From positions 90,001 through 122,000 of the forward strand of contig JAUWGH010000002.1 of the NCBI GenBank assembly GCA_030606485.1: 32,000 nucleotides of DNA, given 5' to 3'. The translations under genes were made by a program, and so were the position numbers. The notes under the pieces are model-generated. The model searched no databases, had not been told where the DNA came from, and saw only the letters and a list, made by a program, of their open reading frames with translations. The DNA comes from Promethearchaeota archaeon. Lineage in GTDB: Archaea; Asgardarchaeota; Lokiarchaeia; Sigyniarchaeales; SOKP01. Of this stretch, positions 10,134-16,638 are shown piece after piece (within the stretch, counting starts at the first letter, position 1; each line of letters begins with the position of its first letter).

Positions 10134-10457
10134 ATGCTTTTATCAATTTTTGGAATTGTGTTATTAATTATAATTATAATATCATATAAAATTTCAAAGA
10201 AGGAAGATAAAAGTCTCATCACCTCCCTCATTATTTTAATAGGGTTCATAGGAATCGAGATCTTTATAGAAAATACAACAATTCAATTATTATTTTTTGT
10301 ATGTATTATTACTTTAATTATATATATTGTATTCTTTTGTTTCATTCCCAGGCTATTTTATATTAAAGGAAAATTCTTATTTACAGAAACAAAATCAGAA
10401 GTCTGGAAAGATTTAAAAATAGATTCTACAATTGTAGAAAAACAAGAAAAAAATTAA
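10134..10457 (+). CDS. Small 3-TM membrane protein, possibly a degenerate MnhC/NuoK-like subunit
   Basis: 107 aa with three hydrophobic helices. TM3 begins with Q and ends in RLFY.KG, as in NuoK/MnhC. It lies 15 bp upstream of an MnhD-like gene. Confidence 0.55.
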   Translation: MLLSIFGIVLLIIIIISYKISKKEDKSLITSLIILIGFIGIEIFIENTTIQLLFFVCIITLIIYIVFFCFIPRLFYIKGKFLFTETKSEVWKDLKIDSTIVEKQEKN

Positions 10458-10472
10458 ATTTTTGATAAAACA

Positions 10473-11978
10473 ATGATTGGCATTCTACTTGCTTTTATTC
10501 CGCTTTATTGTCTCTTAATTGGATTACTCTGGTCTATTTCTTGCTCCAAATCAATTTATAGGAAGAGATTTTTAACTATTTTAATTCTAATAATTTTACT
10601 TATCAATACATCAAATATTGTTATTTTTTCATTATTTGATTTGCAATATTATGATTTTAACCTTAATTTAAATGTTGGAACCTTCGTATTATGGGAAATT
10701 ATATTTGCTTTAAGTTGTATCATATTTTATTTTTCAAAAGATGAAATGACAGGCATTTTAAATGAAAGTTTATATGATTCCTTAATAATTCTAATCATAT
10801 TTAGTCTAGTTGGAGCATCGCTTACTTCAAATGTTCTAATAACTGTAATTTTTGTTATAATTGTTTATATATCTTTAGGGTTAATTTTCTATTTTGGAAA
10901 ATATTCAAAACCTTTTAAATTATTAAGAATTTTCTTTATTTCAATAATTTTAAGTATCATTTTTCTAATTCTCGGACTATTGTTAATTTATTTTGAATTT
11001 GATTCTTTTATATTAACTGAAATTAGAAATTCTGAGTTAAATCCTGGCTTAAATCTAATAATCTCCTTATTATTTTTGTTTGGATTTGGTATCCCATGTG
11101 GAATTATTCCCTTTTCTATATATCATCTTAAGGTTTATTATCACGATTCAACATATACAACTTTATTTACAATTTCCAATTTAACATTTCCAATAATTAG
11201 TTTTATCTTATTCAAATTACTCATAGCCTTCACTTATGATTTAGTAATAAATTCATTTATAATTTTAATCATTGCAGCTGTAGGGTTAATTATATCAATA
11301 ACTTACTCTTTGACTGAGACTTTTACTGCAATTGATGGAAGATCCTTTTCAATTAAAAAGATTTTAGGATTATCTTCAAATTCTGATTTCAATATGATTT
11401 TACTAATTTCAGCTTTTATCGGATTTTTACCAACTGAATCAATAAAAATTGAATATGGGAATTTTGTTTTTTTCTTTATTTTTTGTATGATTTTAATAAA
11501 AATATTATTATTTTATAGTTTAAAACCAGTAATGCTTGAGACTTTAGATGATAATATTAAAATTTTAGGTGGATTTTGGAAAAAATATAAGATTTTTGGG
11601 ATCTTTTATTTAATCGGGGGTATTTTTCTTACAATTCCGTTTGCTTTGGGAAATATCTTAATAAATTTAATCTCAAATATTTTTACAGAATCTCTAATCG
11701 ATTTACCGCATATTTCATTTATTGGTTTTACAATTTGGGCTATTTTAATTTTTTATTTCATAATTATATTAATTTGGGTTTCTATCACGTTTAATGATAT
11801 ATTCATTGGGACTCCAAAATATTTAAAAAATAAAGATATTAGACCGATAACTAAATTAGACTACCTTCCTCTAATCTTAATTTTTATATTTTCAATATTT
11901 TTATGTATCTTTTATTTTTTCAACAATATTTTATTTATGGAAATAATAAATTTTTCTACTGAACAATTTACGCATTAA
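10473..11978 (+). CDS. Degenerate antiporter-like subunit (MnhD/MrpD/NuoN, proton-conducting membrane transporter family)
   Basis: About 14 TMs. Family landmarks are recognisable: LVGASLTSN, LLGLLLIY, GFGIPCGIIPF, IKKILGLSSNS, IKILLFY, IKILGGFWKKY and DIFIG. Confidence 0.7.
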   Translation: MIGILLAFIPLYCLLIGLLWSISCSKSIYRKRFLTILILIILLINTSNIVIFSLFDLQYYDFNLNLNVGTFVLWEIIFALSCIIFYFSKDEMTGILNESLYDSLIILIIFSLVGASLTSNVLITVIFVIIVYISLGLIFYFGKYSKPFKLLRIFFISIILSIIFLILGLLLIYFEFDSFILTEIRNSELNPGLNLIISLLFLFGFGIPCGIIPFSIYHLKVYYHDSTYTTLFTISNLTFPIISFILFKLLIAFTYDLVINSFIILIIAAVGLIISITYSLTETFTAIDGRSFSIKKILGLSSNSDFNMILLISAFIGFLPTESIKIEYGNFVFFFIFCMILIKILLFYSLKPVMLETLDDNIKILGGFWKKYKIFGIFYLIGGIFLTIPFALGNILINLISNIFTESLIDLPHISFIGFTIWAILIFYFIIILIWVSITFNDIFIGTPKYLKNKDIRPITKLDYLPLILIFIFSIFLCIFYFFNNILFMEIINFSTEQFTH

Positions 11979-13392
11979 TTTTTTTTCTCTTTAAATATAT
12001 TTCTGTAGCTTTATTAAGATCAACTGAAGTTAATGACCGTTTTAATTTATTCTGTAGTTTCTCAACATAAGTTTTACATAATTTTAAACTTAAATTTCCT
12101 TGTTTTTCTTTTATTAAATAAAATAATTCGCTCTCTAACGTATCAAATGAAGTTTTTATAATTGAATCTTCTTTAACCGTATCCAGACTAACTTTAATAT
12201 CCTGAGGTTTTAAAAATTGTTTTTCTGGCTTTTTCTCAATTTCCTTAATTGGCTTTTCTTCTGGAGTTTTTATTTTTGTTGTTTTAACTTGAGGAGGAAG
12301 AGGTTTTACTAAGACTTTTTGAGAAAATAAAATTTTTTCGGGAGCTTTAACCTTATGTTTCTCAACTTTTTTTTCTTTTTTTTCTTTTTCGATTAATTTT
12401 TCGATTTCATTAATTTTTTGCTCGATGGCTGATAAATGTATAAATTCTTGAAACTTATTGCAAATATCTTTTAAATGATTAAAATGATTAATTGCATCTA
12501 AGTATCTTTTGTTAATAACTTCATTTTCTGCAATTTTTAGTAAATCATTAAATTCTGATGGAAATTCTTTTTTTATCTTTAATTCATTTGAGATAATATT
12601 TATTAATTTGTTCTTAATTTCAGGATCTTTAAGCGAAATACCAAATGCTGGAAAATTATATTCCTTTTCTATTTGTTTTACTTCTATTGCTTCCGATAAA
12701 TCTTGTTTATTTGCAAATATTATAAGTTTTGAAAATTTTCCATCGGTTTTTTGAAGATTAATAAAATGTGTCAATGTTTTGGTTTTATAATTTGTAGAGT
12801 CAAAAACCAGCAAAATTAAATCAGCTCCACTTAAAAATTTATTCCATAAGGGAGAAAAATTATCTTCTAATTGGAAATCCCATAAATCAAAATATAAGTT
12901 ATCAATATCTATTTTATAAGATTTTGCAAAATTCATAAATATTTTGGGTTCAAAATTTAATTTTAAAAGATTTGCAATTGTGGTTTTTCCTGAACCATAA
13001 GGTCCTATTAGTGCGATTTTTGAATGAAGTTCATAATGAATTTTTTTCAAAAACTCAGTAAATTCATTTCTTTCTTTATTTTTTTCTTTAATCTCCAAAG
13101 AATTGGGAAATGAATTTTGAAATCTTTTAATAATTTTATTTAAAACTTCATTAACATAATCGCTTTTATCAACAAGATCGGCAATAATTAAATAGAAAAC
13201 ATTATTTCTTATAATGTAAAACAATTGATAATTTCCAAAAGGACGATTAAAAAACTGATTTGGTATTGGTAAATCAATAAATTCATTTAATAGGTCTTGA
13301 ACATTTTTAAATTGCTCATTATTAAAAGCTAATGCATAAGAATAACTAAAAATTATATTTTTATTGAAAATAATGTAAATTTGCCGTAGCAA
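11968..13392 (-). CDS. Longin-domain plus Arf-like small GTPase fusion with helical and Lys/Pro-rich C-terminal region
   Basis: The N-terminal ~120 aa have a longin pattern (IYII..NIIFS...FGNYQLFYII.NNVFYLIIAD). G1 GPYGSGKT, WD, the PLW switch-II motif, LVFDS and G4 NKQDL. The 3' end overlaps the convergent MnhD-like gene by 11 bp. Confidence 0.8.
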   Translation of the reverse strand: MLRQIYIIFNKNIIFSYSYALAFNNEQFKNVQDLLNEFIDLPIPNQFFNRPFGNYQLFYIIRNNVFYLIIADLVDKSDYVNEVLNKIIKRFQNSFPNSLEIKEKNKERNEFTEFLKKIHYELHSKIALIGPYGSGKTTIANLLKLNFEPKIFMNFAKSYKIDIDNLYFDLWDFQLEDNFSPLWNKFLSGADLILLVFDSTNYKTKTLTHFINLQKTDGKFSKLIIFANKQDLSEAIEVKQIEKEYNFPAFGISLKDPEIKNKLINIISNELKIKKEFPSEFNDLLKIAENEVINKRYLDAINHFNHLKDICNKFQEFIHLSAIEQKINEIEKLIEKEKKEKKVEKHKVKAPEKILFSQKVLVKPLPPQVKTTKIKTPEEKPIKEIEKKPEKQFLKPQDIKVSLDTVKEDSIIKTSFDTLESELFYLIKEKQGNLSLKLCKTYVEKLQNKLKRSLTSVDLNKATEIYLKRKKINA

Positions 13393-13548: not shown

Positions 13549-14484
13549 ATGAATACCGACCCCCACTCAATCATTGATTTCCTTTTAAGACATGGATTTA
13601 AAAAACAAAATACAGAACTATTAAAAAAAATTGCTAAAGATATAGATGCATTATGCATTAGATGCCAACGAGATAGAATTCAATGTACTTTATCCCCCTT
13701 ATGTTCAAGAAGATTTTTATTGAAATTGCGTATAAAATCAGGGGCGAAATTAGATGATGTTCCCAAATTCTGTTATCGGCAATTGGTGAATCTTATTGCT
13801 CGAGATAAAGAAAAGAAGAGAACATTATATAGACCGGTTGATTCCTATATCTATTTATTAGATTTCTTCGCTATTTTTTTCCCAAAAAATTACCGCTCTC
13901 TTTTTAAAAATTTATCATTCAGAAAATATGAAGAAGCCATAGATGTGTTAGAATCTTTCAAGAGAAAAATGAAAGATGATTTTAGATATTTTTTGACGGA
14001 AAATTATTTAATTATCAAATTTTATGAAAAAATTTATCTATCTTATTTAAAAGAGCAATATGTTTGCTGTAATTTAAGAAGAGATGAAATTTCTGATATA
14101 AATTTACTGGAAAATCTTATTTTATTTTTAGCCACAAATTATTCTCATATAATAATTGAAAGAACACCCGAAGATTCAATTTTAATTTCTTTAAAAGTAT
14201 TTAAAAAGAAACAAACGGATTTACATAAATATTTTAATGAAGATATCGATGAAAATAAGTCATTATTTTTAAAAGATATTGATATAATAAGTGATATCTC
14301 TAATGAAATTAAAATCTATTTTGATGAGTCAGACAATATTGATGTTAGATTAAATGTAAAACTAAAAACAAACATAAATCATGAATTTCTTGGAAAACGG
14401 CAAATAAATTATGAGAATATTCAGAATATATTTGATTTTTTTAACCATTTATATAAAAAAGAACTAAAGGAGCAGAAAAAATGA
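13549..14484 (+). CDS. Hypothetical protein with N-terminal C-x2-C-x6-C-x5-C cluster
   Basis: 311-aa ORF with an ATG start. CIRCQRDRIQCTLSPLC and a later PKFC. Confidence 0.7.
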   Translation: MNTDPHSIIDFLLRHGFKKQNTELLKKIAKDIDALCIRCQRDRIQCTLSPLCSRRFLLKLRIKSGAKLDDVPKFCYRQLVNLIARDKEKKRTLYRPVDSYIYLLDFFAIFFPKNYRSLFKNLSFRKYEEAIDVLESFKRKMKDDFRYFLTENYLIIKFYEKIYLSYLKEQYVCCNLRRDEISDINLLENLILFLATNYSHIIIERTPEDSILISLKVFKKKQTDLHKYFNEDIDENKSLFLKDIDIISDISNEIKIYFDESDNIDVRLNVKLKTNINHEFLGKRQINYENIQNIFDFFNHLYKKELKEQKK

Positions 14485-14538: not shown

Positions 14539-15609
14539 ATGTCTAACGAAATATCTGGAGCACCAACAGCAATGGAAAAAATTTTGGAACTAATTGAAGA
14601 AGAAAAGTTCCAGAGTGCTGTAGAAGCGATATATGAATATTTAAGCATAGAACATGAGGATTATATTAATCGTCTGGAGATTTTAATTAAAAAACTTTCC
14701 CATATTGCAAAGAAAGGAGCTGTTGTTATAAGAACATTAATCCCTAAGTTGCTTAAAAACTTAGCGATAAAAGACGATGTTCTAAGATATGCTTTTGTGT
14801 TAGCCTTAAAACCAATATGTGAAATGGAATATGAAATTATTTTACCCTTCTCTAAGGAATTATTAAAATCTGAAGATCCAAATGTAAAGGAAGGAATGCT
14901 TCAATTAATAAACTTCATTGCTAATGTATATAAAATCGAAAATAAAGATTTAATTAAACTAATTCTTGAAAAACTTTCTGATGAGCAAGAATTTGTTCAG
15001 ACCAAAGCTATTCAAGCACTAAAATCTATTGGAAAAAATAACCCGATTATTTTAGAAGAAGTAATTTTAGAATCTTGTAAACACGCAGAAGATAATTTTA
15101 AGGAAAAATGTGATAATGTCCTAAAAACTCTTACTTCTGTTAAAGATTTAGAGGAAAAAGATATAGAAAAAAGAGAGCTGGCTGTAAAGGAAAAGGAATT
15201 AGAAGAACGGGAAATTGAGATAAAGAAAGAAGAACTTGAATTTAAAGAAAAAGAATTAGAAGATAAAGAGAAAGCTTTAAAGGACAAAGTAGTAGATGAG
15301 GAATTAGAACAAAAAGAAAAAATTCTCGCAGATAAAGAACGGGAATTAAAAGAAAAAGAACTTGAATTAAAAGAAAAAGAATTAGAAGTAGAAGAAAAAG
15401 AAAAACAATTAGAAGAAAAGAGTTTAGAAGTAAAGGAAGAATTATTAGAAAAGAAAAAAGAATTAGTTGAAAAAGAAAAGGAACTATCCCATGCAGAGTT
15501 GGAATTAAAAGAAAAAGAACTTAAAGAGAAAGAACTTGATATAAGAGAAAAAGAAAAACAAAGAATTAAAAAAACACTGAAGAAAGTAGAAAAAAAACAA
15601 AAAAAATAA
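14539..15609 (+). CDS. HEAT/ARM-repeat protein with long C-terminal Glu/Lys coiled coil
   Basis: HEAT-like units (LLKSEDPNVKEGMLQLI; LEKLSDEQEFVQTKAIQALKSIG) followed by about 140 aa of KEKELEL-type heptads. Confidence 0.8.
   Translation: MSNEISGAPTAMEKILELIEEEKFQSAVEAIYEYLSIEHEDYINRLEILIKKLSHIAKKGAVVIRTLIPKLLKNLAIKDDVLRYAFVLALKPICEMEYEIILPFSKELLKSEDPNVKEGMLQLINFIANVYKIENKDLIKLILEKLSDEQEFVQTKAIQALKSIGKNNPIILEEVILESCKHAEDNFKEKCDNVLKTLTSVKDLEEKDIEKRELAVKEKELEEREIEIKKEELEFKEKELEDKEKALKDKVVDEELEQKEKILADKERELKEKELELKEKELEVEEKEKQLEEKSLEVKEELLEKKKELVEKEKELSHAELELKEKELKEKELDIREKEKQRIKKTLKKVEKKQKK
15165..15560 (+). repeat. Degenerate 21-nt tandem coding repeat (KEKELE[L/V] heptads)
   Basis: Recurrent aaagaaaaagaa(c/t)t(t/a)gaa units, e.g. 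15349-15390. The repeat also explains the Ser/Phe-rich shadow ORF on the minus strand. Confidence 0.7.
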
Positions 15610-15633: not shown

Positions 15634-16638
15634 TTAAACAATCGGTTTTTTATGTAATCGTTTTACAATTTCTCTCAGAAGTTCTACTCTATGTGACTCT
15701 GGAGGTAAATTCATTGATATTTCCTTAGCAATATTATATGCAGTTTCAATAAATTTAAGATTCTCTAACATCTCAATTATTTGTATTTTATAATCAACAT
15801 CTTCAATCTCTTTTAGATAAATCAATAACTTTTCTTTAATTAGTTCAAATATTTGTGGATAGGAACGATCTTTATAAACTATTTTTACTAAATTCTCAAA
15901 TGAATTCAAAATGTTATATAACTCGTTTTTTGAATAACTATCAATATTATTTAAGATTTTATTCACAAATATTTCGCTTTTCTCATACTTTTGCATTTTA
16001 TTTGACGTTGAGATTAAACTCAATAACGATTGTTCGTAAAGGAATTTACTTTTTATATTATCAATAATCTTATCATTAATCCATTCTATCAAATTCGGTA
16101 TGTTGAATTTCTCAATTACATCACATAAGAAATTTATAACCGAAAAATATAATCTCGCATTTTCAATGCTGTTTGAACCAAGATAAGAAACTAACCCATA
16201 CTTAATTCGTCCCATAGCATCTTCAAAATTAATAGGTGTCTCAGCAAATTTATAAAATATAGATTCTAATATTGGTCTAAGTTTTTGCTGAGCTTTAAAA
16301 TCATAAACAAAATAACGACCAAAGTCAGGTTGAGGCCCTAAAACCTTTTCTTTTTTTTTCCGTCCTCCAACTTCTTTAGATTTCGGTTTCATTTTTTGCT
16401 GAGTTGCTTTCTTTAATTTTAATTCTTCAGAAAGCTTTTTGGCCTCTTCTTCAGGCAAAATTTCTAAAATTATCTTATCTTTTTCTTTGACATATATTTT
16501 GAAAAAAATATTCTCTATTGATTCAGGAAATAATTGATCTCGAATATTTTTAGGTATAGTTATCCCACCACTCTTCTTTAGATTAACGATGTCCTCAAAA
16601 TAGATTTTTTCAGGGTCATCCTTATCTTGATTTTCCAT
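15634..16638 (-). CDS. AbrB/SpoVT-like N-terminal DNA-binding domain fused to a basic linker and an alpha-helical repeat domain
   Basis: EDIVNLKKSGGITIPKNIRDQL...IFFKIYV...KIILEIL matches the AbrB swapped-hairpin pattern (V...G.I.IP..IR..L). A Lys-rich linker and about 220 aa of amphipathic helices follow. Confidence 0.6.
   Translation of the reverse strand: MENQDKDDPEKIYFEDIVNLKKSGGITIPKNIRDQLFPESIENIFFKIYVKEKDKIILEILPEEEAKKLSEELKLKKATQQKMKPKSKEVGGRKKKEKVLGPQPDFGRYFVYDFKAQQKLRPILESIFYKFAETPINFEDAMGRIKYGLVSYLGSNSIENARLYFSVINFLCDVIEKFNIPNLIEWINDKIIDNIKSKFLYEQSLLSLISTSNKMQKYEKSEIFVNKILNNIDSYSKNELYNILNSFENLVKIVYKDRSYPQIFELIKEKLLIYLKEIEDVDYKIQIIEMLENLKFIETAYNIAKEISMNLPPESHRVELLREIVKRLHKKPIV

Follow-up and report, generated by a model that had tools for sequence, protein, structure and literature searches.

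The 474-aa protein encoded at 11968..13392 (-) of the window (the whole 32,000-nt stretch of DNA analysed) is part of a pseudo-enzyme lineage of the known Asgard longin-ArfL architecture, a real, well-conserved and modest variant of it. The G2 Thr, the G3 Gly/Gln and the G5 Ala are lost throughout this lineage, which is under purifying selection and has a single origin. Going by the sequences, we lean with some reserve towards an always-on scaffold: its head and its tethered tail would each bind a different partner, with proteins encoded in its own gene cluster as the likeliest candidates.

Domain architecture of the pseudo-GTPase

Read from its N-terminus, the protein comprises a longin domain, a pseudo-ArfL G domain, a three-helix bundle, a linear motif with a linker and a C-terminal helical domain. 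The N-terminal part (residues 1-122, 13027..13392 (-)), on whose longin nature the initial annotation had staked its reading, indeed shows the beta-beta-alpha-beta-beta-beta-alpha-alpha fold over ~120 residues and is of the AP sigma/mu and VAMP7 type; its Pfam Longin score is 25.8 bits (E 1e-5) against a gathering cut-off of 26.2. Residues 123-273 (12574..13026 (-)) adopt an ArfL-type small GTPase fold, as indicated by Pfam Arf (E 5.5e-13), by small GTPase matches in Foldseek and VIA searches of the model and by the tree described below. The predicted full-length model has a pTM of 0.66, and the matches listed in the whole-model fold searches were all taken up by the G domain. Close matches in an Atlas shape search were archaeal longin-GTPase clusters only.

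Residues 278-348 (12349..12561 (-)) form a bundle common to the pseudo-GTPase and its canonical paralogue. Its three helices, proposed earlier, are present in the predicted model, whereas the MIT/TPR-like character ascribed to them appeared in few profile matches (Pfam MIT in 1/40 members, TPR_11 in 5/40), and a profile search against PDB chains returned a weak mixture of TPR and MIT (E 0.001-0.04). A connection to ESCRT-III via the MIT reading found no support in this analysis. The conserved linear motif that follows, PxxIxFxxxxxVxxL (residues 351-365, 12298..12342 (-)), is specific to the pseudo lineage, occurring in 48/72 orthologues vs 0/22 canonical paralogues. The linker, first described as Lys/Pro-rich, is a Lys-rich, disordered, length-variable stretch (12151..12297 (-)), recognised by composition and by pLDDT (<50 at residues 367-392 and 400-413). 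The C-terminal three-helix domain (residues 415-474, 11971..12150 (-)) is limited to the pseudo lineage and matches no known family: Pfam and PDB profile searches with it gave nothing significant, and ESM Atlas feature searches with it and with the bundle gave no usable match. SapB_1 was considered as its family and dropped, as 8/57 members matched at E 0.0035 or worse.

Losses among the G motifs

Switching in the Ras family depends on the G2 Thr and the G3 Gly, which hold Mg2+ and the gamma-phosphate; the next residue, a Gln, is catalytic. Our counts compare 72 species-level orthologues with 42 canonical relatives, which have PT, DxAGQ, NKQD and the G5 Ala in 42/42 cases. Held against a canonical Ras-superfamily switch, the pseudo-GTPase has G1 and G4 and lacks the G2 Thr, the G3 DxxG(Q) and the G5 Ala. 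Both motifs first described as intact are so: the P-loop GPYGSGKT (12982..13005 (-); GxxxxGK[ST] in 71/72 orthologues) and, in the query branch, the G4 NKQD (12700..12711 (-); 68/72).

Switch I (PKIFMNFA, 12925..12948 (-)) is without Thr, its loop is 2-3 residues shorter than that of the canonical paralogue, and a new conserved motif, IM[ND]FA, is found there in the pseudo lineage. Its register differs by aligner, BLAST pairing K150 with the Thr and phmmer and MAFFT pairing N154. Since position 150 is K/R in 71/72 orthologues and position 154 mostly N/D (the query has M153), the G2 Thr is absent in either register. At G3/switch II (WDFQLED, 12862..12882 (-)) the Asp is kept (D172 in 72/72) and the Gly has become Leu, DxxG being present in 0/72 orthologues; the catalytic Gln position (176) holds K in most orthologues (K176 in 49/72) and E in the query protein. 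A further loss, beyond the earlier reading, is that of G5 (S253-L254, 12631..12636 (-)), where the invariant Ala of the canonical paralogues is replaced by Leu (Leu254 in 70/72). The degenerate G2 and G3 motifs reported initially are thus confirmed as lineage-wide across the 72 orthologues, and a strain-specific mutation, a pseudogene and a wrong start codon were all rejected.

The losses extend further in an MK-D1-like sister branch, to which the MK-D1 protein is assigned by its motifs. There G4 is lost in 15/16 representatives (intact in 1/16), Q174 (present in 53/72 orthologues) and K176 are likewise missing, the P-loop Lys is gone from some members, and everything else is kept. Of the nucleotide-binding, non-switching pseudo-GTPase proposed in the initial annotation, the non-switching core stands, and nucleotide binding is probably limited to part of the family.

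The motifs that remain invite a different reading, that of an atypical live GTPase like RGK (Gem/Rad; class iii), hydrolysing slowly or sensing nucleotide by another route: Asn/Asp154 could stand in for Thr at Mg2+, Gln174 could be catalytic, or Lys/Arg 150/176 could serve as an internal finger. RGK proteins are themselves without the G2 Thr and the G3 Gly, and the retention of G1, D172 and G4 and the residues prevalent at 150, 154, 174 and 176 agree with such a route. However, the MK-D1-like branch has dispensed with Q174, K176 and G4, and in some members with the P-loop Lys, the query protein has E and not K at 176, and the G5 Ala to Leu change is expected, by inference from Ras A146 mutants, to weaken base binding. 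Even though RGK proteins are listed among pseudoGTPases with retained activity (PMC5593906), we regard this alternative as rather improbable.

Conservation and distribution

Switch II (residues 171-185) is 91% conserved in the pseudo lineage vs 79% in canonical proteins, the G domain average being 0.71. As the altered switch II is more conserved than the canonical one, it is best described as a rebuilt surface under selection and not as decay. The dN/dS is ~0.3 overall and 0.16-0.22 in the G domain, rough values obtained from few substitutions relative to three close orthologues; 43 positions are at least 95% conserved, and the reading frame is open throughout the order.

In 88/94 genomes of the same order a strong match was found, with no more than one in a genome except where the assembly is split; the genomes sampled are incomplete and, being kin, not independent. 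Related loci are mostly from Promethearchaeota (Lokiarchaeota). A search of 151 genomes sampled phylum-wide yielded, in other families, no more than weaker matches over residues 1-270, of the kind that short longin-GTPases give; the C-terminal domain did not turn up outside the same order. The gene was not found in 4/94 genomes, is truncated in 2 and broken in 1, as might be expected of a decaying duplicate with no current function. Yet in three of these four genomes the neighbours are missing too, consistent with gaps in the assembly or loss of the whole block, and the open frame, the G-domain dN/dS and the conserved positions largely refute decay, which we find hardly credible. A gene split by frameshift or stop was seen at G099:C10:25001-26499 and L104:6001-7505, from either sequencing error or true loss.

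In two genomes of one genus, the usual locus holds a gene of 126 or 174 aa (L123:883-1263 (-) in G144 and L120:490-1014 (+) in G138) with a shared new start and no trace of the head; other members of the genus have the full-length gene. They count as a single event and demonstrate that loss of the longin and G domain is possible. Because the truncated genes keep just the linear motif (351-365) and the C-terminal domain, the "linker" and tail carry a function of their own.

Origin and phylogenetic placement

The same genome encodes a canonical paralogue of 638 aa (G000:C10:420452-422368) with longin, G domain, bundle and intact motifs, 27% identical to the pseudo-GTPase over about 400 residues, besides two short canonical longin-GTPases. 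In quick trees with SH-aLRT support, built without bootstraps or the published reference set, the degenerate proteins are one clade nested among canonical long forms (SH-aLRT 95 for the enclosing 105-row clade). The pseudo clade itself has SH-aLRT 99-100 in a longin-only tree, in a tree without the G1-G4 columns and in their concatenation; since it holds in the longin-only and motif-masked trees, it does not stem from the very columns that define the trait. The pseudo-GTPase would go back to one duplication of an active longin-ArfL-helical-bundle gene, in the common ancestor of a single lokiarchaeal order. Altered G2 and G3 motifs are also seen in another, separate group of long longin-ArfL proteins (P0135, P0137, P0172), with DYTG or DFTG and no PT, so degeneration recurs.

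A duplicate of this kind could be the inactive half of a pair, forming a longin-mediated dimer with the canonical paralogue and acting as GEF, GAP platform or dominant-negative regulator, on the model of Rag heterodimers or longin-dimer regulators. The shared architecture and the identity given above agree with this, as does a second, longer match of canonical type in nearly all carrier genomes, and longin dimers are established GTPase platforms, modelled also for MK-D1 fusions (PMC10933270). The canonical gene, however, also occurs where the pseudo copy is absent, in lineages as well as in individual genomes, so co-occurrence is uninformative; it was never a neighbour of the pseudo-GTPase in any of the 80 loci examined, and the two genomes with truncated genes lost the longin and G domain while keeping the tail. 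A complex prediction for residues 1-348 with the canonical paralogue scored 0.00 and, having been run without controls, was counted neither way. Overall, we deem the pair unlikely.

Regarding its family, the protein had been called an Arf-like GTPase. The small GTPase fold holds up, but it is not Arf proper and is placed in ArfL instead, nested among canonical longin-ArfL proteins of a motif type labelled ArfL by tree in Table S3 of Vargova et al. (10.1101/2024.02.28.582541). It departs from Arf/ArfR/SR-beta in G1 (GPYGSGKT vs GLDxAGKT) and G3 (WDFQL vs WDxGG), and eukaryotic Arf domains formed a separate clade in a quick tree, outside the group holding the pseudo-GTPase. The same table lists as ArfL by BLAST four proteins, Lokiarch_11040/KKK45286.1, WP_162306730.1 (MK-D1), OLS14325.1 (CR_4) and TKJ18572.1 (Loki_b32), that we read, from motifs and architecture, as probable direct orthologues. 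As two studies place ArfL outside the Arf/SR-beta clade, "Arf-like" denotes resemblance here and a comparison with SRX-SR-beta is an analogy.

A single-chain equivalent of SR-alpha SRX/SR-beta, or an Arf-adaptor precursor in protein targeting or vesicle coating, would account for longin and Arf-like domains sharing one chain and for the top PDB sequence matches, which were Arf/Arl proteins and AP-2 sigma. Against it stand the ArfL classification of the orthologues, the position of the eukaryotic Arf domains in the tree, the rank of SRX among structural matches (25-27), the restriction of the lineage to one order and the protein's lack of both a membrane anchor and an N-terminal amphipathic helix. 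We give this reading very little credence.

A conserved gene cluster

Divergent from the pseudo-GTPase lies the gene for a 311-aa protein with an N-terminal Cys cluster and no Pfam family (13549..14484 (+), 78/81 loci). It is followed by one for a 356-aa protein with HEAT repeats (Pfam HEAT_2) and a long coiled coil (14539..15609 (+), 76/81 loci), and then by one for a 334-aa protein with a helical C-terminal part and a weak AbrB/MazE-like N-terminus (15634..16638 (-), 68/81 loci; MazE match at E 0.004, below cut-off), the order seen in the 81-locus set. The Cys pattern of the 311-aa protein (CxxC, C, C, C) is possibly a metal site. In a sister family, the AbrB-like gene is directly upstream of the pseudo-GTPase on the same strand at 5/6 loci, two of which have the Cys and HEAT genes alongside, and at the sixth the pseudo-GTPase, Cys and HEAT genes are one co-directional run. 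The cluster is thereby kept through three gene orders across two families. Among the 151 genomes searched, the AbrB-like gene occurs only in the same order, which is the range of the pseudo-GTPase.

Synteny overstates the linkage because gene order is generally conserved in the family and the genomes are kin; housekeeping genes, the M32 peptidase among them, often lie nearby as well. The sister family's rearranged cluster is more telling than the conserved order in the query's own family.

Other genes were observed nearby. A stand-alone protein of ~198 aa, part of which is longin-like (HMM E 7e-7), and which is a candidate longin partner, is encoded upstream of the AbrB-like gene in 53/81 loci (for instance L121:2521-3102 (-) and L122:808-1410 (+)), the query genome's copy lying elsewhere (G000:C2:23690-24277). 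A Rab-like canonical GTPase of about 320 aa is often found a few genes downstream of the pseudo-GTPase, the L128/L129 flanks included. In one sister-family genome (L124:695-4188 and 11623-12702) the cluster adjoins an actin-like ORF start and two uDENN/longin-like ORF starts, calls made by eye on the first 30 residues only. Membrane proteins of 107 and 501 aa, without Pfam match, are encoded at 10134-11978 (+), and the convergent 501-aa gene (10473-11978) overlaps the 3' end of the pseudo-GTPase by 11 bases; a functional link to it was rejected, as it is a neighbour in only 17/81 loci and the M32 peptidase usually takes its place. A sigma-70 promoter scan was below chance, with a model not suited to archaea.

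A putative scaffold derived from a switch

For the always-on scaffold that we lean towards, a fixed conformation is most likely. Without the Thr and Gly contacts to the gamma-phosphate, such a protein would neither tell GTP from GDP nor hydrolyse efficiently. In the query branch it is probably nucleotide-loaded, guanine nucleotide being held as a structural cofactor (class ii pseudoGTPase); fold matches and orthologue motif counts agree with the class ii definition (PMC5593906) on one point, and the retained G1, G3 Asp and G4 also fit residual turnover. The MK-D1-like branch may have dropped guanine recognition (class i) and be nucleotide-free. The rebuilt switch I and II sequences could provide a fixed binding surface, with one partner docked to the longin/pseudo-G head and another bound by the flexibly tethered tail, made up of the linear motif and the C-terminal helical domain. 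The likeliest candidates would be the Cys-cluster protein, the HEAT-coiled-coil protein and the AbrB-like helical protein.

A bolder possibility, which we think doubtful, is an archaeal signalling pair born of duplication in which the dead-switch copy builds a dedicated complex with the three cluster proteins, one of them bearing an AbrB-like DNA-binding domain, and couples it to the active longin-ArfL paralogue. If true, an Asgard small-GTPase cycle would be linked to a defined effector or transcriptional output, and prokaryotes would offer a pseudoGTPase/longin adaptor, open to testing, that parallels AAGAB-AP sigma.

The small GTPases of Asgard archaea are as a rule taken for functional switches; in this case an entry catalogued as "ArfL" is an order-wide pseudo-enzyme lineage. 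They are seldom in operons with regulators, so partners are hard to assign (PMC10933270). The lineage offers a tractable test of how a scaffold originates from a switch: the matched active paralogue provides an internal control, the losses proceed in steps from G2/G3/G5 to G4 and on to the entire head, candidate partners can be named, and MK-D1, which is in culture, has an orthologue. Because the lineage does not extend beyond one lokiarchaeal order, little can be learned directly from it about the eukaryotic ancestor.

Comparison with known systems

Longin/GTPase proteins are known in Asgard archaea, as the initial annotation stated: longin domains fused to Arf-like GTPases were reported for Lokiarchaeum in 2016 (Klinger et al. 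as cited in PMC4917890), and 26 MK-D1 GTPases have roadblock or longin domains (Tran et al. 2024, PMC10933270). The pseudo lineage shares the longin and ArfL architecture of these fusions, but they have the canonical PT[IM] and DxAGQ where it is without the G2 Thr, G3 Gly/Gln and G5 Ala, and it adds the linear motif and the C-terminal domain. The degenerate motifs go unremarked in the available portions of the published accounts of such fusions, and a partial literature search found no account of the lineage as pseudoGTPases, an earlier mention being possible.

SR-alpha SRX/SR-beta and the Rag-Gtr heterodimers likewise pair a longin or roadblock domain with a small GTPase. They differ in that SR-beta and the Rags keep the G2 Thr and DxxG and depend on nucleotide state, and ArfL forms a clade of its own. 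Among pseudoGTPases, RGK GTPases (Gem, Rad) are class iii and Rnd proteins class ii (PMC5593906), the latter being the class suggested for the query branch. AAGAB, a pseudoGTPase, binds AP sigma longins without nucleotide (PMC12490416). The likeness to AAGAB/Irc6 is that a GTPase fold serves for binding independently of nucleotide, with an AP-sigma-type longin as partner; AAGAB, however, is eukaryotic, class i, without all G motifs and bound to its longin in trans, so that we draw an analogy only and claim no homology.
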